Shown piece after piece: positions 25,628 through 52,050 of a DNA stretch of 64,000 nt. A program made the translations under genes and the position numbers. How positions within the stretch are numbered: position 1 is the stretch's first letter; each line of letters opens with the position of its first letter. The notes beneath the pieces are model-generated. The model was given only the letters and a program-made list of their open reading frames with translations, ran no database searches and was not told the origin of the DNA. Source of the stretch: Candidatus Freyarchaeum deiterrae (GTDB taxonomy: Archaea; Asgardarchaeota; Jordiarchaeia; Jordiarchaeales; Jordiarchaeaceae). The stretch is from NCBI GenBank assembly GCA_037305845.1, contig CP147778.1, positions 1,664,001 to 1,728,000 on the forward strand. Direction: 5' to 3'.

Positions 25628-25995
25628 GGTGGCGAGTCCTGAAGCTCGACATCCCGCACTACCAGCGTATCTGACACCTATTCTCCAATCCGGGATTCTG
25701 GAAGCACCGAGCGTTCAGAGTTAGGTTGCTCCATCAGGGCGCCGACCTAAATTATGCCAGCGTTCTCCCGGGCCTAACCGGTTTCCCTAATGAAGGATAA
25801 ACATACTTTCCCTACGAAAAGCTGTTACCCACCGTCGATCCTCCAGTGCGGATTTTCACTGCCTCGGAGACAGACCGTTTTGGCAGATTGGATATGCCTC
25901 ACATCAGCTTTCGGCCCGCCATATAGAGGATTTGCGGTCGAGAGGAGAACCTCTCTCAGGCAACCCCTATTTGCCCGCCTAGACAAGCCACCACC
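25628..25995 (-). ncRNA. ffs: SRP (7S) RNA with a 32-nt BHB intron at 25733-25764
   Basis: Termini pair (GGTGGTG/CGCCACC); Alu loop-loop complementarity ATAGGGG/CCTCTAT; helix 6 GTAG loop; helix 8 GGTTAGGCCC...GGAGCAACC split by the insert. Confidence 0.93.
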
Positions 25996-26129
25996 TAATT
26001 GAAGTCCCTCACAAAAATATAAACATTTCTTTTCCATATTTTAATCAACCATTAAGCAGTTTAAATAAAAAAATAACAAAATATTACTCTTTAAAAATCA
26101 TAATCAGAATATAGCTTCAAAGAGAGAAA

Positions 26130-26305
26130 TGGCGCAGAGAGCGGGGATTTCCTGACCAAAAAATTTTTTTGACCACTTCGAACCCGCGTTCCCCTCACGG
26201 GGAACTGGCTTAGCAGGCGTGCACCCGAAGAACAGTTGCTCCTCTAGTCAGCGCCGTACCGTTCCCATTCCACACAAAGCTAGGTGAAATCTTGGCTATC
26301 TCTGC
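26130..26305 (-). tRNA. tRNA-Ser(GCT) with three introns: 26262-26290, 26219-26248, 26147-26176
   Basis: Acceptor GCAGAGA/TCTCTGC, G73, CCA, long variable arm; intron removal gives an 87-nt cloverleaf. Confidence 0.88.
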
Positions 26306-26498
26306 GCCTTTTTTTAGATGGTTATTCATAGTTCTGTACTTGTTTTTAACTTTTTTTGGTGCTTATTATTTTTGGATGGTATACCGAGTCTAGTGGATAG
26401 AAAAAGTTAAGTGTTGTATTAGATTACCATATTTTGCGAAGTATTGGTGTTGATGAGTTTATTATATTGCGGCATGTTAATCGACTGGAGGCCCGGAC

Positions 26499-27143
26499 TT
26501 GTCTAATGAATTACTTCCCGGTATACATCCTACGCGAATGGAACTTCTAATTCTCAAGAAAAGAAAGAATCTTGCCGAAAAGGGACATGACTTATTGAAG
26601 GAAAAGAGAGACGCTCTGATAATGGAGTTTTTTGATATTCTGGAAGATATCCGAAAATTGAGGACCGATGTTAATAATGCGCTTAAAGAAGCCTATGATG
26701 CATTAGCTACTGCTAAAATGGTAATGGGGCCTCTTAAGGTGGAAGAAGTCGCCACAAGCGTCCCTCCTATACTAGAGTTGGACGTAAGTACTAGAAATGT
26801 TATGGGTGTTCGCGTTCCCCTCTTAAGGGTGGAAGAAAAATCCGAGTCTACCTCAATTTCTTCTTATGGGTTTACAGATACTTCTGCAAAACTGGATGAA
26901 GCGGTTGAAAAATTCAGAAATGCTTTAAAAGCAATAATCCGGTTGGCAGAAACTGAAGCTGCGGTTAAACGGTTAGCCGAAGAAATTGAAAAAACTAAAA
27001 GACGTGTTAACGCCTTAAAGTACATCATTATCCCTCGCATAACAAACACCATTCAATTCATTGAATTGCACTTAGAGGAGAGGGAACGAGAAGACTTGTT
27101 CCGAATGAAAAGAATAAAATCAATTTTGGCCGCAAAAGCCTAG
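26499..27143 (+). CDS. atpD: A/V-type ATP synthase subunit D
   Basis: PTRMEL, GHDLLKEKRDAL, KTKRRVNAL. Confidence 0.96.
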   Translation: MSNELLPGIHPTRMELLILKKRKNLAEKGHDLLKEKRDALIMEFFDILEDIRKLRTDVNNALKEAYDALATAKMVMGPLKVEEVATSVPPILELDVSTRNVMGVRVPLLRVEEKSESTSISSYGFTDTSAKLDEAVEKFRNALKAIIRLAETEAAVKRLAEEIEKTKRRVNALKYIIIPRITNTIQFIELHLEEREREDLFRMKRIKSILAAKA

Positions 27144-27248
27144 AAGCTGCCCCATTAATGCTTCATGAAACAATTTTGAGAATTGATGACCTTGAGCGGC
27201 AATCAATTTTTTTTAAAAGTTTTTAGAAAAGTAATGAAGATAAAAAAA

Positions 27249-27590
27249 CTATTTTTTAACCAAAAGTATTGCTTTGGCTAGATTTCCGTCTGCTTGTATG
27301 AGTGCCTGCTTTGCTTCTTCCTCTGTTACGTCTGCTTGTTGTGCCACTAGTTGTATATCTGCTTGTGAAATTTCTTTTTCTCTACTTTCCTGCGGCTCTT
27401 TTTCTTGGACGTTTCCAGTAATCTGAAAAACAGTTTGTTTTGCAATCTCGAGTCGGGTGACTTGGGGGGAGCTTATGATTATGTCCTTGTTAGGGCACTT
27501 GATTACCACTTCGCTAGCATTTATCTCTACAGGTTTAATACCCATTTGTTGCATTGCTTTCTTCATTTGTCGTGGATTTACATGACGCAT
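27249..27590 (-). CDS. nac: Nascent polypeptide-associated complex protein
   Basis: NPRQMKKAMQQMG; UBA domain DIQLVAQQA. Confidence 0.93.
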   Translation of the reverse strand: MRHVNPRQMKKAMQQMGIKPVEINASEVVIKCPNKDIIISSPQVTRLEIAKQTVFQITGNVQEKEPQESREKEISQADIQLVAQQADVTEEEAKQALIQADGNLAKAILLVKK

Positions 27591-27647
27591 TTAGTAACCT
27601 CCATTCAAATCTACCATTAATTCTTAAACATTTTTTGGGGCAGAGTC

Positions 27648-28127
27648 CTATAATTTGCTAATCCTAATTTTAACAGCAACCCCTGCTTGGAATGCCCGCA
27701 TTTCTTTTTCGCTAAGGATTGCTTTGCCAACTGCTATTAAATTGTCATCAGGGTCTACAACTATCACTTCATCGCCTGGTCTTATATTAGGATCCGCATC
27801 TATAATATGTTTGGCAAATACACTACGCCCTTGTATTATAAAAGGAACTATATCTTTTAAAATTATTACTCTTAATTTTGGTTTTTTAGTGTTTTCTAGT
27901 ATCATTTCTGCTCCTTTAAGATGAAGTGCTATTTTTCCATCGTTTGCACGGATGGTTGCGAGCAAGTTCCCATCAAGATAAACAAATCTAATCTTGCCTG
28001 TTTTTGGTGAATGCGATATGGTAATTTCCCTTGGAAACAGTTTATCTCCGATTCCCGGAAAAAATTGGTAATCCGCAATGCATCGGAGTTTTCTAAGTGT
28101 CTGATACTTCGCCTCAATTGTTTTCAA
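27648..28127 (-). CDS. PUA-domain protein (resembles the C-terminus of archaeosine TGT)
   Basis: IADYQF, GRSVFAKH, IRPGDEV, G.AVK.R. Confidence 0.85.
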   Translation of the reverse strand: MKTIEAKYQTLRKLRCIADYQFFPGIGDKLFPREITISHSPKTGKIRFVYLDGNLLATIRANDGKIALHLKGAEMILENTKKPKLRVIILKDIVPFIIQGRSVFAKHIIDADPNIRPGDEVIVVDPDDNLIAVGKAILSEKEMRAFQAGVAVKIRISKL

Positions 28128-28983
28128 TCAAATTACATCCTTTTGCTCGAACTTCCAAGTCGAAAACCATATGGTCGATGCTTGGGGCGTATTTTTTTAC
28201 TCTTTTAAAATTCAAGCGTTTAATTTTAAAAGATTTCTGTTCGACCATCATTTTTATTATCTTTAACTTTTCTTGTAGTTGCCTCTTTGGAAATGCTTCA
28301 TGGTAGTGTATGATACCGCCGCTTTTTTTAAGGGAATTAAACGCGGTATCTAAATAGTTTTCAGTTCCAGTTACCAAGCCCATAATTACCCTGTCAGCAA
28401 CGCCAACCGGCGCGACTTCTCTGCAATCCCCTAGAATTGGTTCAACTATACCAACAACTTTATTCAATAAAATGTTTACAACTAAATATTTATACGCTTC
28501 AGGATTTATTTCAACTGCATACACTTTAAAAGGTTTAGAATGTACTGCAATTGGAATCGAGAATTGACCTACACATGAAAAAAGATCAACTACTACTTCT
28601 CCTTCTTGTACTAGCTGACCCAATCTTAAACGTTCATTACTATTGCCTGGCGAAAAAAGTATTTTAAATGGATCCAGTTTAAAAACGCAGTGGTTTTCCT
28701 TATAAAGGGTCTCTGTGCTGCCCCCTCCGGCTATTATCTTTAGCTGGGGGATACGCATCTCTCCTTGCGGGGGAGTAAGCTTTCTCGCTACAATTTTCGC
28801 TCGTTTTTCTATTTTAGTGAATTCAACGCCAATTTCATGTTCATAAGGCAAAAGTTCCGGTTTAATATTACAAATTAAAATATCACCTAAAAGTTGCCAA
28901 CAGTGAGGAATAAGATCTAAAAGTTCATCAGGAATAACTGGTTCCAAGAGCTTTTTTAACCGCTTCCAAGAAGGACTTACCAA
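28114..28983 (-). CDS. Trm5/Taw2-family SAM-dependent tRNA modification enzyme
   Basis: ENHC.F.LD, FSPGN..ER, DLFSCVGQF, EINP, ADRVIMG. Confidence 0.85.
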   Translation of the reverse strand: MVSPSWKRLKKLLEPVIPDELLDLIPHCWQLLGDILICNIKPELLPYEHEIGVEFTKIEKRAKIVARKLTPPQGEMRIPQLKIIAGGGSTETLYKENHCVFKLDPFKILFSPGNSNERLRLGQLVQEGEVVVDLFSCVGQFSIPIAVHSKPFKVYAVEINPEAYKYLVVNILLNKVVGIVEPILGDCREVAPVGVADRVIMGLVTGTENYLDTAFNSLKKSGGIIHYHEAFPKRQLQEKLKIIKMMVEQKSFKIKRLNFKRVKKYAPSIDHMVFDLEVRAKGCNLIENN

Positions 28984-29087
28984 AAGAATCCACCCTGCGA
29001 GAAATTCAACTTAAAAATGAGTTTTGTTTGCCTAAAGTTAAAAATAATTTTTGATTAATAAGGTGAGTCCAATAGTATTTAGATAAG

Positions 29088-30293
29088 TTAAGCATACATT
29101 CCCACTGGGCCTTCTCCACAGGAAATTGCTTTGCCGAGAACCTTTTTTATTGCTTCTTCGAACTCTTTTTGGCTCACGCTTATTTTGTTTTGGCGAATCG
29201 CGAACATACCTGCTTCAGTACAAATTGCTTTAATGTCCGCTCCAGAACAGTTTTCAGTTATTGGAACTAATTTTTTGAAATCAACTTCTTTCTCAACATT
29301 CATCCGCCGTGTATGTATTTTAAAAATATCTAACCTCGCTGTCTCACTAGGCAACGGGAATTCGATTATTCGGTCAAAACGTCCAGGGCGAAGAAGTGCT
29401 GAATCAAGGATGTCTGGGCGGTTTGTAGCTGCAATTACGCGGACTTCACCTCGGACATCAAATCCATCTAAAACGCTTAAGAGTTGCATCAAAGTCCTTT
29501 GAACCTCACGGTCTCCACTAGTGGCGATTTCAAGTCTCTTGCCTCCAATAGCGTCAATTTCATCAAGGAACACTATACTAGGCGATTTATTTTTAGCCAT
29601 CTGAAAAATCTCTCTAACCAGCCTTGCGCCTTCACCGATAAACTTCTGAACCAATTCTGATCCAATAACTCTTATGAAGGTCGCTTTAGTTTCATGGGCT
29701 ACAGCTCTCGCAAGAAGCGTTTTACCCGTACCTGGGGCACCAGTCAAAAGTACTCCTTTCGGAGGGTCTATTCCAACTTTTTCAAATAATTCTGGATGGC
29801 TTAGGGGCAACTCAACGGTTTCTTTCATTTCCCTAATTTGCTCTTCTAATCCACCAATGTCAGCATATGCAACTGGTGGGGCTTCCTCAACCTCCATTCC
29901 TCTAACAAATGGATCTCGAGTTGCTGGCAATATTTCTACCACTGCAAATGTTCTTTGGTTTAAGGCTACTCTCGTTCCTGGCGATAAATCTTTTTCGGGT
30001 ATGCTTTTAGAGACATGAACAACAAAGTGCGGTCCAGTTGAACTTTTTACTACTATCCGATTATCCGTTAGCACGTCTATTATGGTCGCTGCGATTAGAG
30101 GCGGTTGTCTTATTTTGTCAATTTCAGTTCTAAGCGAATGAATTTCACGTTCAAGTCTCATACGCTCCGCATCGAGCCATTGTTTTTCGGTCTCAAGCGC
30201 TCTAAGTCTTTTCTCAATATGCCGTGTATAAGAGAGCAGATAAGACGTATCAGAATTGTAAACATGTTTTCCCGAATCAGTAGAATCTGGCAA
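29088..30293 (-). CDS. pan: Proteasome-activating nucleotidase
   Basis: Coiled coil, [20 protein letters not shown]-terminal MYA (HbYX). Confidence 0.97.
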
Positions 30294-30629
30294 TAGACTA
30301 CCTCCAAGTTGACATTAACCTTCCAAATATATTTAATATTTTTGGTAAATTCAAGAATTCCAGGTACTTTTTTCCCAATATTATCCCCAAATAAATAAAT
30401 ACAAGAGTATTTTTTGCTCGTTTAATATATATTAAATTTACAGAAAAATATTATTAAATAATTTTAGAAATAAAAAAAAGATGTTAATTAAAACCTGTTT
30501 TTGTATACTTAAAACTAGTCTATAGTTATACTAACTCTCAGTGAATGTATGGCTCTAGTTAAAGTCATGATTCCATAACATACTTTATTATACAGTATTC
30601 CTATAATTATTTTAGAGGAGGCCTTATTC

Positions 30630-31166
30630 TTGTTGTGTGAGGTCTGTGGTCAAAAGATAATAGGAAAAGGCAAATACGTGAATATCGAAGGTGCTAATCT
30701 AATTGTTTGTGAAAACTGTGAACGGTTTGGAGATTCTTCAAGGATATCAGTTACACGCCCTCCAAAGCCCAAAATAAATAAAATTACTAGCCCCCCAAAA
30801 ATTATGACGCTTAAAAAACCTAAGACCAAAAGTTTTGTTAAAAAAGATTTCCTTCCGAATTCCTATGAATTAGTAGATGATTATATGGACAAAATTCGAA
30901 AAGCTCGAGAAGAAAAGGGTTTATCTCATGAAGAATTAGCAAAGAAAATCAATGAGAGAGTTTCCATTATAAAGAAAATAGAAACAGGCAAAATGTACCC
31001 ATCTGAAAAAATAATCAGGAAACTGGAAAAAGAACTTCAAATTGATATTTATACTCCTCTAGATTCTAAGGATGAAGCTGTCGGGACCAAGGAAGATCGT
31101 AAAGGGTTAACATTAGGTGATGTTGTTAACATTAAAAAGAAAAATAGCAACAATATACAACAGTAA
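30630..31166 (+). CDS. mbf1: Multiprotein bridging factor aMBF1
   Basis: CEVCG zinc ribbon, HTH, TLGD. Confidence 0.93.
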   Translation: MLCEVCGQKIIGKGKYVNIEGANLIVCENCERFGDSSRISVTRPPKPKINKITSPPKIMTLKKPKTKSFVKKDFLPNSYELVDDYMDKIRKAREEKGLSHEELAKKINERVSIIKKIETGKMYPSEKIIRKLEKELQIDIYTPLDSKDEAVGTKEDRKGLTLGDVVNIKKKNSNNIQQ

Positions 31167-31326
31167 GCTGCTTATCAAGCGGGATCTAATTTCTAAAAAA
31201 TGAATTATAAAACTTATCTTAAGCAATAGAAGTAAAAAATATTATTGACTATTTATATACAATATCTAAGAAACACATTAAAAAACTGGTTCCTTAACTG
31301 TCCTTCTGTTTCTGAGGTTTTCAAAT

Positions 31327-31920
31327 ATGGAAAAGGCATCAAACAATTATACTTCTGATTCAAATCTTGTTGCAAATACATCAAAGACATCAAAACAAAA
31401 ATTATTTGCTTTAAGATTAGATCATCGTCCTCACAGAGACATGCGTGTGTCGACCCATATCGCGCTCGTTGCAAGAGCTTTTGGTATGGACGGCATCTTT
31501 TTTAGTGGCGTTCCTGATACAAAATTACGCGAAAAAATTAACGAGGTTAGCAAAAACTTTGGAGGCGATTTTTTAATAAAAACCGGTTGTGAGTGGAAAA
31601 AAGTTATAAAAGATTGGCAAGCACAAGGAGGAGAAATAATTCATCTCACAATGTATGGACTGCCTCTTCCAGAAGTTATTGAAAAAATTGTCAAATCATC
31701 AAAAGATAAGCTAATAGTGGTAGGCGGACCAAAGGTCCCAAGTGAATTTTATTCTATTGCAAACTATAACGTATCTATAACTAATCAACCACATTCAGAA
31801 ATAGCTGCACTGGCGGTTTTTCTAGATTATTATAGTAAAGGAAATGAATTTAATTTAGAATTTAAAAATGCGAAATTAAAAATAATTCCATGCGAAAGGG
31901 GGAAAAAATTCGCAACTTGA
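31327..31920 (+). CDS. trm56: tRNA (cytidine56-2'-O)-methyltransferase
   Basis: HR..RD.RVSTH, HLTMYG, NQPHSE. Confidence 0.95.
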   Translation: MEKASNNYTSDSNLVANTSKTSKQKLFALRLDHRPHRDMRVSTHIALVARAFGMDGIFFSGVPDTKLREKINEVSKNFGGDFLIKTGCEWKKVIKDWQAQGGEIIHLTMYGLPLPEVIEKIVKSSKDKLIVVGGPKVPSEFYSIANYNVSITNQPHSEIAALAVFLDYYSKGNEFNLEFKNAKLKIIPCERGKKFAT

Positions 31921-31966
31921 AGTATCAATTTTCTTTTTAATAAAACTTAAAGAGGAGCTTGGAAAA

Positions 31967-32752
31967 TCATTTCATGAAAGCTTTGATACTTTTGGGAAGA
32001 AAACCTTTCATTGGTACCCTTGGGAGAAATTTTCCAATTTCCGAAATTATACCCGGCGCTTCAGAACCGTATTTACAAACAATAGCATTTTCTAGGAGTC
32101 CCAAGCGTTCAATAGAAAGTATATCCTGTAAATGCCCTGATTTAATAATGGCCTTCCTAACCTGTTGGCGCGTAGAACCACAGATCATGATTCTATCGGA
32201 TGAACTACTAATCCATCCCTTGAACATAGATATTTGATTCCCGCTTAGTTCTGCCTCAATATCACGAGTTTCTTTATTAACATTCACGATTTTTACCTCA
32301 AGCGGAAAATTTTCAATAAGAGCAAATTTATCGATAATTTTACGCAAAGGTTTCTTAACATTATTCAACAACTGTTTTCTCAAAATATAAAGAGGAATAA
32401 ATGCGTCCTTCTTATTGGAATTCAAACCGACGTCAAGATAAAGACCATATCCAAACTTCGTTGGCTCAACTAATTTACCCCTAACAGTCAAACCCTGATG
32501 CAAATCGCCCGGCTCATAAATTGAACCGTACTTATGATTTAAAAAGTTTTTAGCTGCCTCCGCGTCTTCCCCCTCTAAAACTAATTGGATCCATCCTCTC
32601 TCAGTGATATCTATACTTTTTATTTTAACCTGCAGTTCAGAAATTTCCTTTTTAATGCCGCTACTTATTGAATGCAAAGCTAATTCTCTTTGCGGACCAT
32701 AAACCTTCTCCGAGACTAGAAAGACTTGTTCCATGAGTTTAAAAACATACAA
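31967..32752 (-). CDS. DUF2110-family protein
   Basis: GYGLY.D and GH..DI..IERLGLLE; lies next to tfe. Confidence 0.8.
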   Translation of the reverse strand: MYVFKLMEQVFLVSEKVYGPQRELALHSISSGIKKEISELQVKIKSIDITERGWIQLVLEGEDAEAAKNFLNHKYGSIYEPGDLHQGLTVRGKLVEPTKFGYGLYLDVGLNSNKKDAFIPLYILRKQLLNNVKKPLRKIIDKFALIENFPLEVKIVNVNKETRDIEAELSGNQISMFKGWISSSSDRIMICGSTRQQVRKAIIKSGHLQDILSIERLGLLENAIVCKYGSEAPGIISEIGKFLPRVPMKGFLPKSIKAFMK

Positions 32753-33115
32753 TTTCTTTTGAAGCTTTTCTTACCTTTGCTATATTCAGTAAAAATATCC
32801 CTTTTTTGATCACTTCATATAACATATTTATTATTCATTATTAAACTGCAAAATTATTTACTTTGTTTGTAACTTGTTCAAAGTAAGGTATCGCTTAATC
32901 ATTTTTAGATAATCAATATCATAATAAATGGCATAAATTATACCTAAAATCCAGAATTAACATCTAAGTTAAGACACTTGCTAAATATCCGCCTCTGTGA
33001 GTTAACTGCATACTAACCCCCCCAAATCACTACCAAAAGAATAATAACATATCCAAATTTCTATATCCAAAACTAAATTCCAGTGACTGGTTCTTTGTTA
33101 GAAGCCAGAGCGTTT

Positions 33116-33664
33116 TCAGCTTTTCAGACCCTTTAGTTCGCCTTCCAACTCTTCAACTTTATTTTCCAGAAGTTCAATCAACTTGTCATTTTTAACAAAG
33201 ACCAGAGTATTTGAGCAAGTAGGACATTTAAACGAGGCGTCCATAGCTCTATCAAAAGTTAGTTGTTCACAATCAGCGCTGCCGCAGTGAAAGAGCATAT
33301 TACCTTTTTCATAATCAAGTCTTTCATTAAGTCTCTGAAATACCATCTGTTTTCTTGAAATTATTAGGCTCCTTAATTTTTCTGGATTTAACTTCCAGAA
33401 ATAGATAAACCAACCCGTTCTAGTGTCTCTGGTTCGTCTATACGAAGCAAGGCGGTTCTCGTATAACCTGTATAAAACTTTTCTTACCCCATTTAAACGC
33501 ATCTCAGTTTTTTCTGCAATCTCTTCGTCCGTAGCCTCATCTTTGTCCGACAATGCGTTAGCAACCTTTATTGCATTTTCGCCGCCAATTTCCTCAATGA
33601 TGGATGCAAAAAGGTCGTCTCCTCCCACTTTTTTAATAGATGTTAAAATCATGCTGTTCACCAC
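33116..33664 (-). CDS. tfe: Transcription factor E (TFE alpha)
   Basis: TDEEIA, VRKVLY.LY, GWFIYFW, F.CP.C. Confidence 0.95.
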   Translation of the reverse strand: MVNSMILTSIKKVGGDDLFASIIEEIGGENAIKVANALSDKDEATDEEIAEKTEMRLNGVRKVLYRLYENRLASYRRTRDTRTGWFIYFWKLNPEKLRSLIISRKQMVFQRLNERLDYEKGNMLFHCGSADCEQLTFDRAMDASFKCPTCSNTLVFVKNDKLIELLENKVEELEGELKGLKS

Positions 33665-34330
33665 ACTTTTTTTTGTTCGAATTCACGCATCCTCCAATTA
33701 ATCTTGATGCCAACAAATCTCAGCACTAATATATATGTACGTTCTTATTAAAAAAATTTACTATTGTCAGTAGTATTTTATGACAGACAAACAAAAACTA
33801 TATAGTTCTTTAATCCCTAATTATAAAATATAAAGATTAATGAGTATGAATAAATTTCTCAGCAAAAACGAATATTAATTAAAGAATTATTTAAAAGTAT
33901 CTATAAATAATTACAATTAATCGACCCTAATTCATCAACATTATACTAGAACTGTTTCGTTTGTGTAAAATTAGCATTAAACCTAACATTTTCTGGATTG
34001 GTTTCTAGCCACGAAAAAAATTTTGTAAACATTTTATTATGCAAAATTTGAAAATTATTAAAAATGGAGGGCGGAGACAGGATCAATTCAATATATTTAA
34101 ATTCAAATTGAAAAACATGAATTATATTCAACCGAATAAAACTATCTTAAAGAAACTTAAATTAATAGTTTTCCGAAATCTAGAATTTGCGGGCTTTGAA
34201 AACTTATTGTGATAAGTGTATGCTAAGCATCTTGCAAGCTGAATATAAATTGGCTGGAAAATTTTTATTTCCAAAGACAAAATTCAAAAATAGTGGTACG
34301 CAATATATTTTCGTACGTAAGATAAAATTT

Positions 34331-34422
34331 GGGCGTATGGTCCAGTGGCTATGACACCGCGCTTACAACGCGGTAAATCCTTTTCAGGAGCCGAATCCGC
34401 GGTTCGAATCCGCGTACGCCCA
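34331..34422 (+). tRNA. tRNA-Val(TAC) with a 19-nt variable-loop intron at 34377-34395
   Basis: Acceptor GGGCGTA/TACGCCC; CCGCG-CTTACAA-CGCGG; BHB central helix CGGT/GCCG. Confidence 0.92.
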
Positions 34423-34611
34423 CCTCTTCCATCTTTGGTGGCCTAAATTGTATATTTTTCTCTTTCAACTGCTCTAAAAACTTAATCATATAGGTTAATT
34501 CTAAATTTTCGCGATTGATTAAATATATCGCGTTTTTAAGGGAGCTTTTCTAAAAATCTTTTGCGATCTTTTTTTAGATAATCTTATATTTTTTGGCTGA
34601 TATTCCATATT

Positions 34612-35012
34612 GGGGTGATGAGCAGAAGGACGGCTGCCGGTGCCTTTTGGTGCTGAGGAAATCCATCCATCATGTGGGGCTCGAGCATTGTAAAGTGCAG
34701 GCTGAGAAGTCTGGCAATGGAGCAGAAATCCTTTGAATTAAGGACTGTAAACGACACATCCTTCTGAATAATGACTATGATATGGAATAAGAACGTAAAA
34801 CCAATCTTTTGGTGTTCGTTCTACAATAAAACCGTTGAGGATTCAGAAGGAATTGTTGAAACGACCATCCTCGAGGATGCAAGTCCAAATAGGCTGCCGA
34901 TTATCCCCCCACAAGAGGCGGCGGGTAGGACGCTAAGCTGAATGCTGTCAAGAGATCTAATGGTAACATTGACCTCTGAACAGAAGGTGGATTACTCTCT
35001 GCACATCACCCC
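34612..35012 (+). ncRNA. rnpB: RNase P RNA with a 23-nt BHB intron at 34728-34750
   Basis: P1 GGGGTGATG/CATCACCCC; CR-I GAGGAAATCC; CR-V AACAGAAGGTGGAT; P6 GTGGGG/CCCCAC; TGAAACG. Confidence 0.94.
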
Positions 35013-35113
35013 AAAAACTTTCATACTTTTCGGGTTTTTTGGTTGGCGTAATTGTAATATCCTATTAAAATAAATTCAATTCGGTACTGTTTATATTTTT
35101 CAAGAATATCTGT

Positions 35114-35626: not shown

Positions 35627-35823
35627 TAAACCTTAATTTTAGACAAGATTTTTTAGAACAACTAAGATTTGATTTACAATTTTGCCAGTAATTACAAAAC
35701 GTTCCTGATATTCAATTGAAACTAATTAGTGATTAATATTTTTGATAGTCAATTTTGGATTAAAGATAAGTACTTTAATGTAATAAATATTATTTACTAA
35801 ATAATTATTTTTGGGTGGTGGTA

Positions 35824-43270: not shown

Positions 43271-43325
43271 ATTAATTTAATTTTCATAGTCCTAGTACCC
43301 CCACCAATTGACTGCTTGTGATTAA

Positions 43326-43622
43326 ATGGCTAAAAACCAAACCATATCAAAGAACCAAGTTGAACATGTAGCTTGGCTTGCTAGATTAGAGTTAACCGAC
43401 GATGAAAAAGAGGCATTTACAAAGCAATTAAACGAAATACTGGATTACTTCAAGAAAATTGATGAGATAGATACCTCAAACATCGAGCCTACTTTTCACG
43501 TTTTAGATTTAGTGAATGTACTGAGAGACGACAAAGTCGAGCCCTCCTTATCTAAAGAGGATGCATTGAAAAACGCCCCGCAGAAGGAAGATTCATTTAT
43601 AAAAGCCCCAAAAATACTCTGA
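43326..43622 (+). CDS. gatC: Asp/Glu-tRNA amidotransferase subunit C
   Basis: HVAWLARL, LRDD, NAP. Confidence 0.95.
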   Translation: MAKNQTISKNQVEHVAWLARLELTDDEKEAFTKQLNEILDYFKKIDEIDTSNIEPTFHVLDLVNVLRDDKVEPSLSKEDALKNAPQKEDSFIKAPKIL

Positions 43623-43653
43623 ACAATTCGATTATCTTCGGGAGTGAACAGCA

Positions 43654-45117
43654 ATGGTTAATTATAATGAATTGACGTGCCATGAACTCAAAGAGATGAT
43701 AGATAACCAGGAGGTTTCCTCGGAGGAAGTAGTGAATTCTGTTTTTGATCGCATAGATAAAATTGAGCCGAAGGTACATGCATATATTTCTTTGTTTCGA
43801 GATTCAGCTTTACAAGATGCGAGGGTTATCGATAGTCAAATTAAAAAAGGGGGAACTGTGGGCAAGCTGAGCGGGATTCCCATCGCAATCAAGGATGTTA
43901 TGTGTACAAAAGGTAAGTTTACTACCTGCGGCTCGAGAATTATTGAAAATTATATCCCCCCATTCGACGCGACTGTGGTTGATTGTGTTAAAAAAGAGGG
44001 CGTAATAATTACCGGCAAAACTAATACGGACGAGTTTGCTATGGGTTCCTCCACGGAGAATAGTGCTTTTGGCTATTCTAGTAATCCCTGGGAATTAGGT
44101 CATGTTACTGGAGGGTCTTCTGGTGGCAGCGCAGCCGCGCTAGCCGCAGATGAAACAGTACTGGCTCTGGGAAGCGACACCGGCGGCTCTGTCCGTTGTC
44201 CGGCAAGCTTCTGCTCAGTTGTTGGACTAAAACCAACCTATGGGCTGGTAAGTCGTTACGGGCTCATAGCTTACGCTAATAGTTTAGAACAGATTGGTCC
44301 CATGACCAAAGATGTTACGGATTGTGCACTATTATTAGGTATAATAAATGGAAATGATCACCGCGACAGCACCTCAGTGCCTTTCCCAAACAAAAGTTAT
44401 ATGAATGCTTTGGTTAGTGATGTCAAGGACTTTACTCTTGGAGTCCCGAAGGAATTTTTTGGTGAAGGCACAGAGGAGGCTGTTGAAAAATGTGTTTGGG
44501 ACGCCATTCACAAATTTGAGGATTTAGGCGCTAATTATGATGAAATTTCCATGCCCCACATGGCTTATTCAATTCCCACTTACTACTTAATAGCGATGTC
44601 CGAGGCAAGCTCAAACTTGGCTAGATTCGATGGAATTCGATACGGTTTTCGGGAAGAAAAAAACGAAGCCGACTGGGATACGGTTTTTGGAATAACCCGC
44701 CAGAAAGGATTTGGTGCAGAAGTTAAACGCCGTATAATCTTGGGAACCTTTGCTCTCTCGGCAGGGTACTATGATAAATATTATCTAAAAGCCTTGAAAA
44801 TTAGGACGCTAATAAAAAACGATTTCGAAAAAGCTTTATCAAAACATATCGCTCTCATAACTCCAACAATGCCAACGACTCCTTTCAAAATCGGTGAAAA
44901 AGTTGAAGACCCGCTCAGTATGTATATGAGTGACATAGATACTGTTCCCATAAATCTAGCTGGAGTTCCTTCGGTTTCAATTCCTTGTGGTTTTGCAAAC
45001 AATTTACCCATAGGCATGCAAATTATTGGACGCTTTTATGAAGAAGAAACTATACTGCGCATAGCATACACTTATGAACAAAACACTCAATTCCATAAAG
45101 AAAAACCAAATCTTTAA
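43654..45117 (+). CDS. gatA: Asp/Glu-tRNA amidotransferase subunit A
   Basis: GGSSGGS, SDTGGS.R, SSNLARFDG. Confidence 0.97.
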   Translation: MVNYNELTCHELKEMIDNQEVSSEEVVNSVFDRIDKIEPKVHAYISLFRDSALQDARVIDSQIKKGGTVGKLSGIPIAIKDVMCTKGKFTTCGSRIIENYIPPFDATVVDCVKKEGVIITGKTNTDEFAMGSSTENSAFGYSSNPWELGHVTGGSSGGSAAALAADETVLALGSDTGGSVRCPASFCSVVGLKPTYGLVSRYGLIAYANSLEQIGPMTKDVTDCALLLGIINGNDHRDSTSVPFPNKSYMNALVSDVKDFTLGVPKEFFGEGTEEAVEKCVWDAIHKFEDLGANYDEISMPHMAYSIPTYYLIAMSEASSNLARFDGIRYGFREEKNEADWDTVFGITRQKGFGAEVKRRIILGTFALSAGYYDKYYLKALKIRTLIKNDFEKALSKHIALITPTMPTTPFKIGEKVEDPLSMYMSDIDTVPINLAGVPSVSIPCGFANNLPIGMQIIGRFYEEETILRIAYTYEQNTQFHKEKPNL

Positions 45118-45197
45118 AAAAATAATTCTTGAAATAAATTCCAAGTCTGCCAAAAAGACTGAGATATCTAACATCCGCCCTTAGATGGTGAAAAAAA

Positions 45198-46673
45198 TTG
45201 GCCGGCGCTCAAAAATCAACTGAACTTGAAAAAAGTGAAGTCAAAATTGGATTGGAAATACATGTTCAACTCACCGCATTAAATACTAAGCTTTTTTGTG
45301 GTTGCAGCACAGACTACAGAGGCAAAGAACCTAACTCCTTTGTATGCCCAGTTTGTCTTGGTCTTCCAGGATCGTTGCCTGTTTTAAACAGAAGAGCAGT
45401 TGATTTGGGGATGATGGTCGCTATCGCTCTAAATTCTCAGATTTCCCACCGGATGATATTTGACCGCAAGAATTATTTTTATGTTGACATGTCTAAAAAT
45501 TTCCAAATATCACAATATGACAAAGCTGGTGGAATTCCTTTATCCATCGGAGGATGGGTTGATTTTGAAGTCAACGGGGCCGTTAAAAGGGTTGGAATTA
45601 TACGATTACAACTGGAAGAGGACCCCGCTCGTTTGTTTTATCACGGAACCATCGATAGCTCACCTTACACCCTAGTTGACTATAATAGGGCCGGTGTCGC
45701 CTTATTAGAAATTGTCACCGAGCCAGAGCTAAAATCAGCAGATGAAGCACGACTCTTCTTACAAAAACTACGCTCCATCATAGAACATCTAGGAGTTTCG
45801 AATGGCGCCCTACAAGGTTCGATGCGTTGCGATGCAAATATTTCTCTACAAGGCGGCAAACGAGTAGAAGTAAAAAATATCTCATCGTTTCTAGAGGTAA
45901 AAAGGGCATTACAGTATGAAATAATTCGGCAAAAACAGCTTCTGAGAAGAAAGTCAACTGTAGAGCAAGAAACACGACACTGGGATGCGGATAGACGAAT
46001 AACAATATCTCTTAGAACAAAAGAAACCGAAAGTGATTACCGATATTTCCCTGAACCAGATTTAGTACCGGTGGAAATATCCAAAAACTGGATCAAGGAA
46101 ATTCAATCCAGAATGCCAGAGCTTCCAGACGCCCGGAAAGCACGCCTAATAAAGGAATTTGATATACCGGAATATGATGCCGGGGTACTCACAAGTTCTA
46201 AAGCACTTGCAGATTTTTTTGAAGAATGCTGTCATTTATATCCCGACGCTAAAAAAATTAGTAACTGGATTATGACGGATCTGACTCGTTATCTAAAAGA
46301 GTTGGGAATTGAAATTTCAGAAGCAAAAATAAAACCAGAACACCTCATAGATATGCTAAAACTCATTGACGAAGGCGAGATAAGTGGAAAAATAGCTAAA
46401 AAGGTTCTAAACGAAATTTTAAGAAACGGGGAACCTCCTAAAGAAATCATACAAAAAGAAAATCTAATAAAAATTAGCGATAGAGCCCAATTACTGAAAA
46501 TTATAGACAAAGTTTTCGAAGAATTTCCCAAAGCAGTACAAGACGCAAAAACAGATCAAAACACTATAAATTATTTGGTTGGACAAGTCATGAACAAAAC
46601 AAAAGGAAAAGCAGATCCTGGAATCACAAACAAGCTAATAAGAAAAAAATTAGCGGAATATCCGACTGCGTAA
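45198..46673 (+). CDS. gatB: Asp/Glu-tRNA amidotransferase subunit B
   Basis: IGLEIH, DYNRAG, DYRYFPEPDL. Confidence 0.97.
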   Translation: MAGAQKSTELEKSEVKIGLEIHVQLTALNTKLFCGCSTDYRGKEPNSFVCPVCLGLPGSLPVLNRRAVDLGMMVAIALNSQISHRMIFDRKNYFYVDMSKNFQISQYDKAGGIPLSIGGWVDFEVNGAVKRVGIIRLQLEEDPARLFYHGTIDSSPYTLVDYNRAGVALLEIVTEPELKSADEARLFLQKLRSIIEHLGVSNGALQGSMRCDANISLQGGKRVEVKNISSFLEVKRALQYEIIRQKQLLRRKSTVEQETRHWDADRRITISLRTKETESDYRYFPEPDLVPVEISKNWIKEIQSRMPELPDARKARLIKEFDIPEYDAGVLTSSKALADFFEECCHLYPDAKKISNWIMTDLTRYLKELGIEISEAKIKPEHLIDMLKLIDEGEISGKIAKKVLNEILRNGEPPKEIIQKENLIKISDRAQLLKIIDKVFEEFPKAVQDAKTDQNTINYLVGQVMNKTKGKADPGITNKLIRKKLAEYPTA

Positions 46674-46786
46674 ATATACCCTACATGCTTTTCCCATCTC
46701 TACTAGAATCAATGAGTCTTCACGCTTAAAATGCTGCTTTTCAAAAAACAATTTAATAGAAGAAGGTTTAGGCTTTGGAGCAAATT

Positions 46787-46925
46787 GGTTGCTCTTTCTT
46801 CGGAAAGCCCTTCGCTAGAACGCGTTTAAATTCGTTCTAGCTGGGTGAAGCCCGATAACACCCTCTATCCCGTCTGCGAAAGCTTCCGGGAATGCCTTCT
46901 TCCGTAACTACTAGTAGAAGAAACC
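46787..46925 (+). ncRNA. Candidate structured ncRNA A, family unknown
   Basis: GC-rich island; cUUCGg hairpin; 9-bp GCTAGAACG/CGTTCTAGC stem; GGTT/AACC ends; T6 run follows. Confidence 0.45.
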
Positions 46926-46968
46926 TTTTTTCAAGCCTAATTAGTATAAATCATTCTTTTAAAAGTAC

Positions 46969-47200
46969 CACCGAGAAAGATAGAGGGGGGTGGGCTCCCT
47001 TTCGGGGGAAGTTGATGAGTTGCTGCTTTTGCTTCTGCTTCTTCTTTTTCCTTCAAGGGCTGATGCCCGATGTGCTCATCCACCATCGCGCATGGTGGAG
47101 TAAAAGAGAAAGCAGGAATAGGATAGGGAGTAGAATTTATAGGGGAGGAGTGATGTCAAGTAACTCCTGTAAGAGGGGCGTTGTTTAACCCCCGGCGGTG
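46969..47200 (+). ncRNA. Candidate structured ncRNA B, family unknown
   Basis: CACCG/CGGTG and GGGGG/CCCCC closing stems; UUCG hairpin; long pyrimidine/purine rod; TATA-like box upstream. Confidence 0.5.
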
Positions 47201-47355
47201 TACAGGTTCCTTAATAAAGAGTGAAACTAATTTTGCCCCAAAACCGTTTATAGATAAGAGGAAAAGTCTAAAATACTGTAATATCAAAATATTATCCAAT
47301 AAGATTATTCTATCTCTGGAGTTTTGATGTTTAAAAATAAAGTGGTGAGGTATTT

Positions 47356-48111
47356 ATGGAGTCAAAAGATTCTGTTGAAATTGTTGAGATCACTCCAATA
47401 ACTGTTCGCAAAATAAACTTTCTGATAGGGCTTCCAGATGTAGGTTTGGTTGGAATGATAGCTGCATCTCATCTAGTAGAGTCATTAAATATGAATGTTG
47501 TCGGCTATCTTGAGTCTGATCTGTTTCCACCAGTAATTGTTTTGCATGGAAACAAAATCTATCATCCCTTCAGAATCTATCAAAAAGATAACATTCTTTT
47601 GCTCTTATCCGAAATTCCTGTTCCCCCGTTAGCAGTTAATGCCATCTCTCAAGAACTAACCAAATGGTTGAAAGAAAAAAATGCTAGTCTTATTATGCCT
47701 CTCGGAGGAGTTCCAGTACCTAACAGAATGGCTGTTGAAGAGCCTGATGTTTACACAGTGCCCACAAATGATATAGCAAATAAATTAATAGACGATTTTT
47801 CACTTTTACGATTAGATGAGGGTATTATGGCAGGGCCTTATGCCAGCATTTTGTTGGACTGTAAGAAACTTGATCTACCATGCCTTGCTTTACTGGCTCA
47901 GAGCTTCCCTAACTATCCTGATCCAGGTGCTGCCGCATCGGTTATTAAGGTTATCAACAAAGTCTTGAAAATGAACATCGATGTAGGTGAGCTTATTAAG
48001 AATGCAGAGGAAATTCGTGTAAAAACGAGGGATCTTATGCAAAGAACTAATGAACAAGGTCAAACTATGGGTAAATCACAGGAGTATGATTTACCTGCGA
48101 TGTACTCTTAG
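47356..48111 (+). CDS. PAC2-family proteasome assembly chaperone
   Basis: GLPDVGLVG, PFRIY, PDPGAA, C-terminal MYS (HbYX). Confidence 0.9.
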   Translation: MESKDSVEIVEITPITVRKINFLIGLPDVGLVGMIAASHLVESLNMNVVGYLESDLFPPVIVLHGNKIYHPFRIYQKDNILLLLSEIPVPPLAVNAISQELTKWLKEKNASLIMPLGGVPVPNRMAVEEPDVYTVPTNDIANKLIDDFSLLRLDEGIMAGPYASILLDCKKLDLPCLALLAQSFPNYPDPGAAASVIKVINKVLKMNIDVGELIKNAEEIRVKTRDLMQRTNEQGQTMGKSQEYDLPAMYS

Positions 48112-48123
48112 GAGGGAAACATT

Positions 48124-48588
48124 ATGCCTGAAAAGAAAAAAACTGAGATAGATACTTTTGACCAAGTTATGAATTATATTTCTCAAGTTGAGAAGAGATT
48201 TGACGAAACTTTCTCCTCGATGTTTAGCCCTATTAGTGTCTCTAGACCTTCGTGGAATCCCGACAAATGTTGTCTTGTTCCTCTTGTTGAAGTTCAGGAG
48301 AACCCAGAAGAAATAATAGTTACAGCAGATCTTCCCTACGTGGATAAAGAAAACATTGATATTAACGCTACAGAAACTTCGTTAGAAATAGAAGCAAAAA
48401 TGAGAAATGCTATAAGATTCGAACGTTGGGGAACTGTTCAGCGTGAAATCTCATTCGATTGTTACCATAAATCAGTAAAACTACCCAGTAGAGTAGATTA
48501 CGAAAAATCAAAAGCAGAGTTCCAAGGAGGTATACTCCGCATCTCTTTACCTAAAAAGGCAAGCAAACAAAAAATTGAAATTACCTAA
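48124..48588 (+). CDS. Small heat shock protein (Hsp20)
   Basis: ADLP.V.KE.I and A.F.GG.L.I.LPK alpha-crystallin pattern. Confidence 0.92.
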   Translation: MPEKKKTEIDTFDQVMNYISQVEKRFDETFSSMFSPISVSRPSWNPDKCCLVPLVEVQENPEEIIVTADLPYVDKENIDINATETSLEIEAKMRNAIRFERWGTVQREISFDCYHKSVKLPSRVDYEKSKAEFQGGILRISLPKKASKQKIEIT

Positions 48589-48651
48589 ATAACTACCCTT
48601 TAAGTACTTAATAATTCGAAAAAATAAAAATTTCTTTGTAGGTGGCAATAA

Positions 48652-49047
48652 ATGTCAAAGAAAATCACTGAGGTTTCGCATATAAAGGTGGGCTCATACC
48701 TAGTAATAGACGAGGCACCATACAAGGTTGTAAGTACTGCAACGTCAAAAAGTGGCAAGCACGGTCACGCAAAGGTTCGTTTAGTAGCTGTGAATTTATT
48801 CGATGATACTAAAAAAGATCTTGTGCTCCCAGGCGACTCCAAGATTGACGTACCATTAATTGACAAAAGAAATGGGCAGGTTATATCAGTAGGCGAAAAC
48901 GTGATGCTAATGGACTTAGAAACATATGAGACCTTTGAAACTCCTAAACCGAAAGATGAAGAAATACTCTCAAAATTAAAAGACGGAGCAGAAGTAGAAT
49001 ACTGGATCGTTATGGGCAAGAAAAAAATAGTGAGGGCAAAGGGTTAA
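48652..49047 (+). CDS. eif5a: Translation factor aIF5A
   Basis: SKSGKHGHAK hypusine site. Confidence 0.97.
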   Translation: MSKKITEVSHIKVGSYLVIDEAPYKVVSTATSKSGKHGHAKVRLVAVNLFDDTKKDLVLPGDSKIDVPLIDKRNGQVISVGENVMLMDLETYETFETPKPKDEEILSKLKDGAEVEYWIVMGKKKIVRAKG

Positions 49048-49175
49048 CAACCACTATCTGTACACAACCTAATTTTTTAAAATTCAAAAATGATGAAACC
49101 ATTTTTCTTACAAATATTTTCTTTATTTTTAACAAAAAGGAAAATTTCAAGCTTATTCTATATTAAATTTGAGGC

Positions 49176-49736
49176 TTGTTAATGTCAGATATACGAAAAA
49201 AAACTTTAGAAACTAACGAGGAAAAGGCTAAAAGTTACGTTTTAGATTCTTCTGCATTAATAGGAGGCTATAATCCAAATTTAATAAACGCCAATCAATT
49301 TATTACACCCGATATTTTTGAGGAAGTAAAGGATGAAAACTCGCGTATGATTTTGAATTTAGCTGTTTCGAATGGGATTCTAAAAGTTAGACCACCAACC
49401 CAAGAATCTATTAAAAGTGTGAAAAATGCTGCGAAGAACACAGGAGATAGCACGGTGCTATCTTTAATAGACATTAAAGTTCTAGCTCTGGCGCTTGATT
49501 TAAAAAACGAAAATCAAAACCCAACAATAATCACTGATGATTACTCCTTGCAAAACGCTGCAGAAACCCTAAGCATCCCCTTCAAAACCATGATTAAAAA
49601 AGGCATAAAACAGGGTTTCATTTGGACAAAATATTGCACCTCCTGCAAAAAACAATATCCCAACACTTACCCTGAAAAAATTTGTGAAATCTGTGGGGGA
49701 AATATAAAGAGGAGAGTTTTAAGAAAAACTAATTAA
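49176..49736 (+). CDS. nob1: Nob1 PIN endonuclease
   Basis: VLDSSA, TGD...LS..D, TDDY..QN, zinc ribbon. Confidence 0.92.
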   Translation: MLMSDIRKKTLETNEEKAKSYVLDSSALIGGYNPNLINANQFITPDIFEEVKDENSRMILNLAVSNGILKVRPPTQESIKSVKNAAKNTGDSTVLSLIDIKVLALALDLKNENQNPTIITDDYSLQNAAETLSIPFKTMIKKGIKQGFIWTKYCTSCKKQYPNTYPEKICEICGGNIKRRVLRKTN

Positions 49737-49811
49737 AAAATAATTTTAATCATTTATAGCTCTCATGAGCGAAAAGTGCCTAATTTCATTTATTATAAAC
49801 GAAGAGAGTGA

Positions 49812-51005
49812 ATGCCCAAATTGGATGAAACTAACAAAATTTCTACTCAATATACCTACTCACCAGATGTGGTTTCCAGACTAATTGAATACTACGGAGA
49901 TACACGGGCGGAAAAAATAATAAAAGAATTAAAAACACCAAGCCGAGTTTTTTCGATTCGAGTAAATAGTCTATTAACTTCAAGCAGTCATGTCCTAAAA
50001 GAATTAGAACAATCGTCCATAAGAGCAAAAATACATCCCACAATTAATGAGGCGATAATACTAGAAGTAAAAGGTCCGTTTCCAATAGGGGGAACTGGAA
50101 AAATTATCATCGCAGATAAATTCGCATGCGAATCCGTCATGCAAGGCTCGGACTTGTACTCATCTGGAATAACCAGACTGGGAAAAATAAAGAAAAATGA
50201 CCCTGTTGTAATTCAGGATAAAACAGGGTTTAAAGTAGCAGAAGGAACATCAAAAATGGACAGCAAAGAAATAATGCAGAGAGTAAAGGGCGTTGCAGTA
50301 CAAACCACAAAATCTATCTACAAAGTTCCCGATCTTAAAAATTCCCATCTTTATACTAACGGATTGATATACTTCCAAAGCCTCCCCGCAATCATTGTTA
50401 GTAAGATTCTAAAACCACAACAAAACGAGTTTGTAATCGACATGTGCTCGGCTCCGGGAGGAAAAACCACACACGCGGCTCAAATAATGGATAACACTGG
50501 CAAAATTCTCGCCCTAGACCGCTCCAAAAAAAAGCTGGAAAAACTTAGAAGTAACATGAAGCGCCTAGGAATCAAAAACGTCATTTCAATACGCTTGAAC
50601 TCACTACTATTAAACAAAAAATACCCTTGCCTAGAAGCTGACAAAATCATAGTAGACCCCCCCTGCACCGCAATTGGAGTTAGACCAAAACTTTACGATA
50701 AAACCACAGAGGAACAAATTATAGCCACATCCGTATATCAACGCCAATTTCTAAAAGCCGCCGCAAAACTCCTGAAACCAGGAGGTACAATGGTGTACAG
50801 CACATGCACCATGACAGTCGAAGAAAACGAACTGAACGTAAAATACTGTTTAGAAGAACTGGGATTAGAACTCAATGATCTTCCAAAAACCTATGGCTCA
50901 CCAGGGTTATCAAACTACTTTACAGAAGCAAAAAAGACCCTAAGATTCGAACCTGATTTACATCAAACCCCCGGCTATTTTATAGCCTCTCTTCACAAAA
51001 CATAA
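49812..51005 (+). CDS. RsmB/NSUN6-like RNA m5C methyltransferase with PUA domain
   Basis: DMCSAPGGKT, DPPC, YSTC, EENE. Confidence 0.92.
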   Translation: MPKLDETNKISTQYTYSPDVVSRLIEYYGDTRAEKIIKELKTPSRVFSIRVNSLLTSSSHVLKELEQSSIRAKIHPTINEAIILEVKGPFPIGGTGKIIIADKFACESVMQGSDLYSSGITRLGKIKKNDPVVIQDKTGFKVAEGTSKMDSKEIMQRVKGVAVQTTKSIYKVPDLKNSHLYTNGLIYFQSLPAIIVSKILKPQQNEFVIDMCSAPGGKTTHAAQIMDNTGKILALDRSKKKLEKLRSNMKRLGIKNVISIRLNSLLLNKKYPCLEADKIIVDPPCTAIGVRPKLYDKTTEEQIIATSVYQRQFLKAAAKLLKPGGTMVYSTCTMTVEENELNVKYCLEELGLELNDLPKTYGSPGLSNYFTEAKKTLRFEPDLHQTPGYFIASLHKT

Positions 51006-51056
51006 AATAAGAATATGATATCCTACGTTTTAGTCTGGAACTTTTAAAAAAATATT

Positions 51057-51569
51057 TTAAATTTTCAAAATTTTAGCACTCATTTCCTCTAGGTCCAGAA
51101 TTGCTATTGTTCCGTTCCCAATAGTCACAACTCCATTAACTATAGGGTAACTACAGCTTCCGGGATTTATTACCAAAACATTGTTCTGTTTTGCAATGGA
51201 CGCCTCATGGCTATGACCATTGATAACAATGTCGTATTTTCCTGAGAGAATAAGCGCCTCTACAACTTCCGGCCACACTCCATGCGTTAGAGCTATCTTT
51301 TTACCACTGACTTCGAATGCAAAAAATATGGGTTTTAACTCGCCGCCAATTTTCTCCAAAAACATTCTCAAAGCCGCCGGGTCGCCATCGTTATTCCCAG
51401 TAACACATATAATTTTACAATTAAGTTTCTCGAACTCCCTAACGCTAAAGGGACTAACAATATCCCCAGCATGAAGCACAAGATCAACCGATTCCGAGTT
51501 GAACTTTTCAATAGCCGCCCGTATCGCCTCAAGCCTATCATGACTATCAGACATTATCCCAATCAACAA
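51057..51569 (-). CDS. YfcE/MJ0936-family metallophosphoesterase
   Basis: SDSH, HAGD, GNND, HG, GHSH, NPG. Confidence 0.9.
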   Translation of the reverse strand: MLIGIMSDSHDRLEAIRAAIEKFNSESVDLVLHAGDIVSPFSVREFEKLNCKIICVTGNNDGDPAALRMFLEKIGGELKPIFFAFEVSGKKIALTHGVWPEVVEALILSGKYDIVINGHSHEASIAKQNNVLVINPGSCSYPIVNGVVTIGNGTIAILDLEEMSAKILKI

Positions 51570-51596
51570 TCAAAATACCTCCATCTAACAATTATC

Positions 51597-52050
51597 TCAA
51601 TCTTTCACCCAATAGGCTCCACTACCAGAGTACTCCTTTTTATGGGCTGCCTTTCTAAGCAGCTTTCCATATCGGAGCCTCTTTCTTGTATCTCTCCACA
51701 GCCTCAACAAGTGCAGAAAACAATTCCTTCCTATGGGCTCCAGCAACAACTACGTACACCACTTCCTCTCCCACTTTAAATTCTCCCACATTGTGATGGA
51801 TTTGCACATCAATGATTCCTTCTTTATTCTTAATCTCCTCGCAAATATTTGTTAACGTTTCGTTCGCCTTTTCTTCATAAGCTTCTAATTCAAGCTTTTC
51901 CACCGGGATACTCTCTTGCGTTTCTCCACGAACTATCCCAATGAAACAGGCAATAGCACCAGCCTTGTACAAATCTGGATTTTTCTTAATCTCGCTAATT
52001 ATGTCCATTAAATCTATCTCACCTTTATTATGAACTTCACCAGATCTCAT
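51597..52050 (-). CDS. moaE: Molybdopterin synthase catalytic subunit MoaE, spliced (exons 52050-51665 and 51639-51597, 142 aa)
   Basis: GA...F.G.VR, HR...F and K..APIWKKE...W; the last motif is restored only after removing intron 51640-51664. Confidence 0.92.

Follow-up and report, generated by a model that had tools for sequence, protein, structure and literature searches.

Predicted tRNA-type introns in the signal recognition particle RNA, RNase P RNA and protein genes of an Asgard archaeon

A 64,000-nucleotide (nt) stretch of Candidatus Freyarchaeum deiterrae (contig CP147778.1, positions 1,664,001 to 1,728,000; hereafter the window) contains 13 short inserts in 8 genes. Ten lie in five tRNA genes, and one each in the genes for the signal recognition particle (SRP) RNA, RNase P RNA and MoaE. 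We think it highly likely (probability about 0.85) that these inserts are archaeal bulge-helix-bulge (BHB) introns, mostly of relaxed form, and that the splicing endonuclease EndA would cut and the ligase RtcB would join all of these RNAs. An initial annotation of the window had counted the same inserts in the same genes, and all were located and could be removed by one cut rule. The span to which it assigned them, 25628-52050, was too short, and the tRNA-Leu gene and both tRNA-Ala genes lie beyond it (Table 1). Its suspicion that the host is an Asgard archaeon was right, since the genome belongs to the Jordarchaeia.

Results

Inserts of the window

The inserts of the SRP RNA, RNase P RNA and moaE are independently apparent against Rfam models and intron-less homologues, and the Rfam models make insertions visible in RNase P RNA, SRP RNA and two of the tRNAs. 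Inserts were excised in silico by a single rule, in which a 4-bp helix lies between two 3-nt bulges and each bulge is cut after its second base. We found that this rule gave the mature sequence for 13 of 13 window products. In the raw window tRNA-Val was the sole ARAGORN call, and after excision of the 10 tRNA inserts ARAGORN called five normal tRNAs (Ser, Val, Leu, Ala and Ala). No further tRNAs were found in the GC-rich intergenic stretches of the window.

The common geometry first proposed for the inserts holds for the 4-bp helix and the 3-nt bulges, but most inserts are relaxed and usually lack the outer helix. The central helix has four of four pairs in seven inserts (SRP RNA, RNase P RNA, moaE and four tRNA introns) and three of four in six tRNA introns. 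The inner helix, within the intron, stands beside the 5' bulge in 11/13 inserts; it is offset in the D-loop intron of tRNA-Ala(CGC) and absent from the 9-nt insert of that gene. The inserts depart from the strict hBHBh' motif and belong mostly to the relaxed HBh'/BHL class. The 9-nt intron is unusually short and was not recovered in the relatives searched. Group I and group II introns were excluded, since the window inserts are 9-33 nt long against a ribozyme core of hundreds of nucleotides and gave no Rfam intron match.

Loose BHB-like shapes are very common by chance, with hundreds of loose matches per tRNA in an unfiltered listing, thus the case for introns rests on boundaries defined by homology. 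We shuffled every insert, allowing a slack of +/-3 nt. This gave p values of 0.015 for the SRP RNA, 0.002 for RNase P RNA and <1e-4 for moaE (3e-7 for these three combined). For all 13 inserts combined p was 5e-11, with four tRNA inserts non-significant when taken singly.

Table 1. Interrupted genes of the window and their predicted introns (window positions).
Feature	Position	Strand	Details
SRP RNA gene (linear, single copy)	25630..25990	-	Rfam RF01857 positions 1-317; one match in genome
32-nt BHB intron, helix-8 tetraloop of SRP RNA	25733..25764	-	helix CGGG/CCUG, bulges AGA and AUG, 7-bp inner stem
tRNA-Ser(GCT)	26130..26305	-	introns 26262-26290 (29 nt), 26219-26248 (30 nt), 26147-26176 (30 nt)
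tRNA-Val(TAC)	34331..34422	+	19-nt intron 34377-34395, variable region
RNase P RNA gene (single copy)	34618..35006	+	Rfam RF00373
23-nt BHB intron in CR-II (J11/12) of RNase P RNA	34728..34750	+	helix GCAG/CUGU, bulges AAA/AAA, no outer helix
moaE	51597..52050	-	exon 1 52050-51665, exon 2 51639-51597; spliced 142 aa, unspliced 131 aa
25-nt BHB intron in moaE, in-frame TAG	51640..51664	-	helix AUGG/CCAU, bulges AAA/AAA, 5-7 bp inner stem
tRNA-Leu(CAA)	52276..52417	+	introns 52314-52343 (30 nt, 37/38), 52375-52400 (26 nt, T loop)
tRNA-Ala(CGC)	61052..61167	+	introns 61074-61104 (31 nt, D loop), 61120-61128 (9 nt, 37/38; weakest case)
tRNA-Ala(TGC)	61313..61443	-	introns 61396-61422 (27 nt), 61330-61358 (29 nt)

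SRP RNA and RNase P RNA

The GNRA tetraloop of SRP helix 8 is required for the contacts with SRP19 and FtsY, and it is this loop that the insert displaces. Without the insert the RNA reads CCC-GGGA-GGG-AGCA, matching intron-less relatives. An insert was present at the identical base in all 9 Jordarchaeia SRP genes recovered and in one other Asgard genome. These inserts are 18-32 nt long with unrelated stems, and the intron strand (CCCG, CUCG, CUUG or CCUG) still pairs with exon CGGG. A search of GTDB with a pattern that did not require pairing found 15 SRP inserts, 14 of them with four of four pairs and one with three of four. The records come from Jordarchaeia, Baldrarchaeia, metagenome-assembled genomes of Promethearchaeota and three Bathyarchaeia, and their identity as SRP RNA was confirmed where checked.

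The helix-8 intron is thus seen at the identical base outside the Jordarchaeia, in Bathyarchaeia (L198, L199, L205), in Baldrarchaeia (L194, L202) and in L206 and L207. This occurrence beyond the Jordarchaeia and the Asgard archaea may reflect recurrent gain at a hotspot or an ancient intron. Other Asgard families carry BHB inserts of 30-31 nt at three further SRP sites, two in the Alu loop and one in the helix-8 stem (L015, L018, L019, L020, L022, L029), and Asgard SRP RNAs have at least four distinct intron positions.

In RNase P RNA the BHB fold of the CR-II insert is the predicted minimum free energy (MFE) fold. All 8 Jordarchaeia RNase P genes recovered carry an insert here, 15-23 nt long and ending in CUGC/CUGU-AAA at the 3' side; it was found in no other Asgard RNase P gene of the alignment. 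A pattern search for the insert context over 400 Asgard genomes placed it in Jordarchaeia only; the remaining matches occurred at the chance rate of the control and lie outside an RNase P context as far as can be read from the sequence. The insert is also absent from the RNase P RNAs of four non-Jordarchaeia genomes that bear the SRP intron. The neighbouring tRNA-Val and RNase P RNA introns have a common start and a UCCU/AGGA stem, a likeness too short to show copying, and the RNase P introns of the sister family differ.

These two RNAs might instead function nicked in two pieces, or with the insert kept as an extra hairpin, so that religation would serve tRNAs and mRNAs only. Structured RNAs can tolerate breaks or added helices, and for the SRP RNA the predicted MFE fold differs from the BHB. 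We nevertheless consider this quite improbable. The insert displaces the SRP tetraloop, pairs with CR-II in RNase P RNA, and its exact ligation restores the consensus in each. Moreover, the four intron-side nucleotides are complementary in unrelated inserts of two phyla, a pairing for which a passive hairpin has no need.

moaE

With the insert removed, moaE, a single-copy gene, reads on as W-K-K-E-Y-S-G-S-G-A-Y-W-V-K-D-stop. In 6/6 genomes of the genus the reading frame stops after W-K-A-A within an insert of 24-27 nt, and the downstream exon remains coding. Across the genus the inserts keep a constant AUGG/CCAU helix and GCUGC/GCAGC stem; their lengths fall in all three frames, always with a stop. 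At 24 other Asgard moaE loci the sequence is W-K-K/R-E or equivalent and unbroken. The segment lost without splicing (W-K-K-E...W) is conserved in solved MoaE structures, and its Glu is presumably needed (compare the E. coli E128K mutant).

Since the genomes were assembled from metagenomes, assembly errors or pseudogenes have to be considered. However, truncated MoaE was found on 9 independent contigs, so an assembly error does not account for it. More generally, the same inserts recur on many contigs and in 6-15 independent genomes, the second exon is conserved as coding sequence and the genes are essential and single-copy. We give an artefact next to no chance.

Splicing machinery

Typing of the EndA subunits and RtcB had been proposed as tests of splicing, and we found an (alpha-beta)2-type EndA, encoded as two subunits, and a single rtcB gene. 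In an alignment with Aeropyrum EndA, the alpha subunit shares the crenarchaea-specific loop and the catalytic Tyr/His/Lys; the beta subunit is without the His. The EndA type with the crenarchaeal loop cleaves relaxed motifs (PMC5829648).

The rtcB gene is itself interrupted, by a 29-nt BHB intron at G000:1452796-1452824 in this genome (minus strand at L093:2749-2777). It separates L-P-D from A-H-Q-G-Y-G, that is, the metal-site Asp from the next His motif. All six congeners have an insert of 29-30 nt with a stop at this site, with a perfect helix in five, and none was found at 24 other Asgard loci.

Introns in other protein genes

The prediction that other apparently broken genes would be interrupted likewise was borne out. 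We scanned the genome ab initio for BHBs able to link two coding frames and searched it by homology alone; together these gave 22 BHB-type inserts in 20 protein genes, 20 of the 22 with a complete (4/4) central helix. This is a lower bound, as the scan cannot see an intron that keeps the frame and has no stop. The genome-wide scan, which the initial annotation had suggested, gave 10 loci at a score >=9, all 10 at family motifs, compared with 1 and 2 for decoy bulge lengths. Below 9 the decoy counts came near the true count, and lower-ranked loci were excluded from the count; when the genome scan was relaxed, the decoy geometry scored as many hits as the true one. One candidate, at G000 735531, was dropped as a chance fusion of the neighbouring PFOR alpha and beta genes.

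Introns were checked against intron-less homologues in moaE, rtcB, cbf5, tyrS, nadE, sahH (29, 56 and 191 nt), alba, porA, mvhD and rps26e, and by profile positions in selD, pcm, endoQ and gatE. Those in leuC, hdrC, ferredoxin, kae1, RLP and fbp were recognised only by motif. Profile positions of the exon pairs adjoin (28 and 30 in porA, 148 and 150 in nadE, 63 and 65 in pcm, 66 and 68 in cbf5, 48 and 49 in selD). One cut rule yields all 22 coding junctions, and every unspliced mRNA terminates at an early stop. Seven intron sites in six aligned genes lie at the 75th-98th percentile of local conservation, with few sequences for three of the genes. On these alignments the bias of introns to conserved motifs is real, while moaE itself is only moderately conserved at its site.

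In G000 and 14 other Asgard genomes the cbf5 intron splits the catalytic Asp codon after its first base. Its inserts are 27-41 nt long and the helix changes from CACU/AGUG to CUCU/AGAG, both strands together. In a genome of another Asgard family (G020, L160) a 41-nt BHB insert lies elsewhere in cbf5, in the N-L-D-K-P region.

The coding inserts could in principle be dealt with in translation by frameshift, read-through or bypass, or the truncated proteins might suffice. Stop-bearing stem-loops can promote recoding, and MoaE falls short by merely 13 residues. Against this, orthologous insert lengths vary modulo 3 (moaE 24-27, rtcB 29/30, cbf5 27-41), non-coding RNAs show the identical geometry, the lost MoaE segment is conserved in structures and rtcB is split between the metal-site Asp and the next His motif. 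This explanation seems to us very unlikely.

Several further features of the coding introns were observed. The sahH gene (G000:1876203-1877066, L254) has three introns of 56, 29 and 191 nt, the last without an Rfam match and absent in the congeners checked. Every one of the 22 coding introns, and nearly every convincing tRNA call, falls within ~1.05-2.64 Mb, the core-gene region. No convincing copies of intron sequences were found elsewhere in the genome. In sahH-56, ferredoxin (G000 2337558) and rps26e (2278919) the central 4-mer is self-complementary, and a direct repeat of 6-7 nt flanks the insert. Self-complementary 4-mers occur in 7/24 cases compared with a 12% background (p=0.02). A direct repeat resembling a target-site duplication would build a BHB by itself, and this is a possible route of intron birth.

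Outside these genes, a GC-rich structured island at window 46760-47230 is a repeat whose first 130 bases occur at 4 other sites and the remainder at one. It is probably a small mobile element and not a spliced RNA.

Gain and loss of introns

Across homologues the length of the introns varies and the helix is kept (RNase P RNA 15-23, SRP RNA 18-32, moaE 24-27, rtcB 29-30, cbf5 27-41 nt). The cbf5, selD, alba and sahH-29 introns occur in both families, and those of moaE, rtcB, porA and tyrS are confined to one genus and not found in the sister family. The nadE intron is absent in a congener (G004) and the alba intron in G007 and G008. Introns in mvhD and rps26e and two of those in sahH were seen only in G000 among the genomes searched.

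One Logan contig, from run SRR28530378 (L255), encodes full-length Alba without an intron. Compared with intron-bearing contigs of the same population (L261, L259), it differs at 3 of ~1040 bases (99.7% identity) and lacks exactly the 30-nt intron, which is kept in 17 other contigs. Since runs with neighbouring accessions contain multi-gene contigs with the alba intron, the SRR28530378 contig is probably DNA. Whether it is DNA or RNA, the predicted intron-less alba product exists in nature.

The initial annotation suggested that splicing gates the functions of these genes. Dependence on EndA and RtcB is indeed expected, since the genome has one gene each for SRP RNA, RNase P RNA and MoaE and no protein-only RNase P was found in it; targeting, tRNA 5' maturation and molybdenum cofactor (Moco) synthesis should need both enzymes. 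A regulatory role is not supported. A regulatory gate would have EndA or RtcB modulated so that targeting, tRNA maturation, Moco synthesis and other functions are switched jointly, with the rtcB intron as feedback. Several targets do act in RNA processing (rtcB, cbf5, kae1, tyrS, gatE, RNase P, alba), every unspliced mRNA has its early stop, and the alba, selD, sahH-29 and cbf5 introns are retained across two families. On the other hand, the targets are functionally mixed, and the tRNAs already make EndA indispensable. Gains and losses of introns separate close relatives, with patchy presence in nadE, mvhD, rps26e, sahH and alba and absence of the rtcB, moaE, porA and tyrS introns from the sister family. 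The tRNA introns of these lineages show the same kind of turnover (10.64898/2026.10.13.758758). This match favours tolerated spread, and we regard a gate as unlikely.

Discussion

Our data suggest a model in which the precursor RNA would fold so that the last exon bases pair with the 3' end of the intron in a 4-bp helix. The (alpha-beta)2 EndA would then cleave both 3-nt bulges after base 2 and RtcB would ligate the exons. Introns may have spread in this lineage, in a near-neutral manner, from tRNAs to the SRP and RNase P RNAs and to no fewer than 20 mRNAs. They would persist at conserved motifs, where exact removal alone restores function. Dependence on EndA and RtcB would be obligatory, most likely as a tolerated by-product of a permissive enzyme rather than a designed switch.

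Several observations weigh against splicing of these RNAs as we propose it. The outer exon-exon helix is complete only in the T-loop and 37/38 tRNA introns and largely lacking in about half of the tRNA cases; among the non-tRNA inserts, RNase P RNA has none, the SRP RNA one pair and moaE an interrupted helix. For the SRP RNA of this genome the BHB fold is 8-9 kcal/mol less favourable than the predicted MFE fold, and in homologues the gap is 0.5-6.6 kcal/mol. A search of JGI contigs for spliced SRP RNA returned unspliced forms only. Spliced-length MoaE was sought among the close protein clusters and 14/14 were truncated, at 131-133 aa; the others, among the matches listed, have at least 143 aa. 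The intron-less alba contig is probably a case of precise intron loss and not a transcript, and a search for spliced forms of PorA and FBPase found none. Finally, the rtcB mRNA would require its own product, a bootstrap problem. Metatranscriptomes of the source soil exist (PMC11291895).

The tRNA genes of Freyarchaeia and Atabeyarchaeia are known to be interrupted in 92-95% of cases, at non-canonical positions, with BHB motifs, repeated gains and an (alpha-beta)2 EndA (PMC11291895; 10.64898/2026.10.13.758758). The 10 tRNA introns of the window are of this published kind, from the same organism or lineage (Valentin-Alvarado 2024; Goswami 2026). A search of the text of both papers found SRP RNA, RNase P RNA and mRNA introns unmentioned, and splicing is shown in neither. 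[quoted passage not shown] Whereas one gene is affected there, at least 20 are interrupted here, with up to 3 introns per gene and the ligase gene included. moaE is a different gene from cbf5, and its intron is like the cbf5 type only in how it would work. For mRNA, a 2020 paper lists cbf5 and one case in a Haloferax 5' UTR, and no others (PMC7714728).

The SRP RNA of Thermoproteus is permuted and circular, with EndA and RtcB acting via a BHB, and an ancestor with simple BHB introns was proposed (Plagens 2015, PMC4731332). The SRP RNA described here likewise has a BHB of the EndA/RtcB type, predicted from sequence. It differs in that its intron lies inside a linear gene, which is colinear to the Rfam model and not built of reversed halves with a terminal BHB. 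A check for an intron in Thermoproteus RNase P RNA found none, and the word 'intron' is absent from PMC3579882. We found no paper, subscription papers lying outside the search, on a linear intron in the SRP RNA or RNase P RNA of archaea or on a multi-gene set of mRNA introns. The chemistry is known and the substrate range is new.

In eukaryotes IRE1, with RtcB or Trl1, acts on XBP1 and HAC1 mRNA, from which a short intron is excised and the exons are joined by a tRNA ligase. That system differs in its nuclease, its cut-site structure and its control by a signal. The initial annotation saw a bearing on the origin of eukaryotic non-spliceosomal splicing. The host is indeed Asgard, but the link is weak: among 400 Asgard genomes searched the RNase P intron turned up in Jordarchaeia alone, those of moaE and rtcB were found in a single genus, and the one in SRP RNA occurs outside Asgard archaea as well. 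A broader reading would combine genome-wide EndA/RtcB splicing of mRNAs, SRP RNA and RNase P RNA and ongoing gain and precise loss with a common control point, provided by the rtcB intron and its dependence on its own gene's product. This would be a counterpart, in a prokaryote and without a spliceosome, of the proliferation of introns in eukaryotes. We find this doubtful.

If splicing occurs, the MoaE, RtcB, Alba, PorA and FBPase that databases list for this lineage are truncated. The linear SRP RNA with its intron is the state proposed as ancestor of the permuted Thermoproteus form, and close relatives that differ by single introns make the arrival and loss of BHB introns testable. Archaeal coding genes have been regarded as intron-free but for cbf5; in this lineage about 20 conserved genes and two very ancient RNAs would need tRNA-type splicing.

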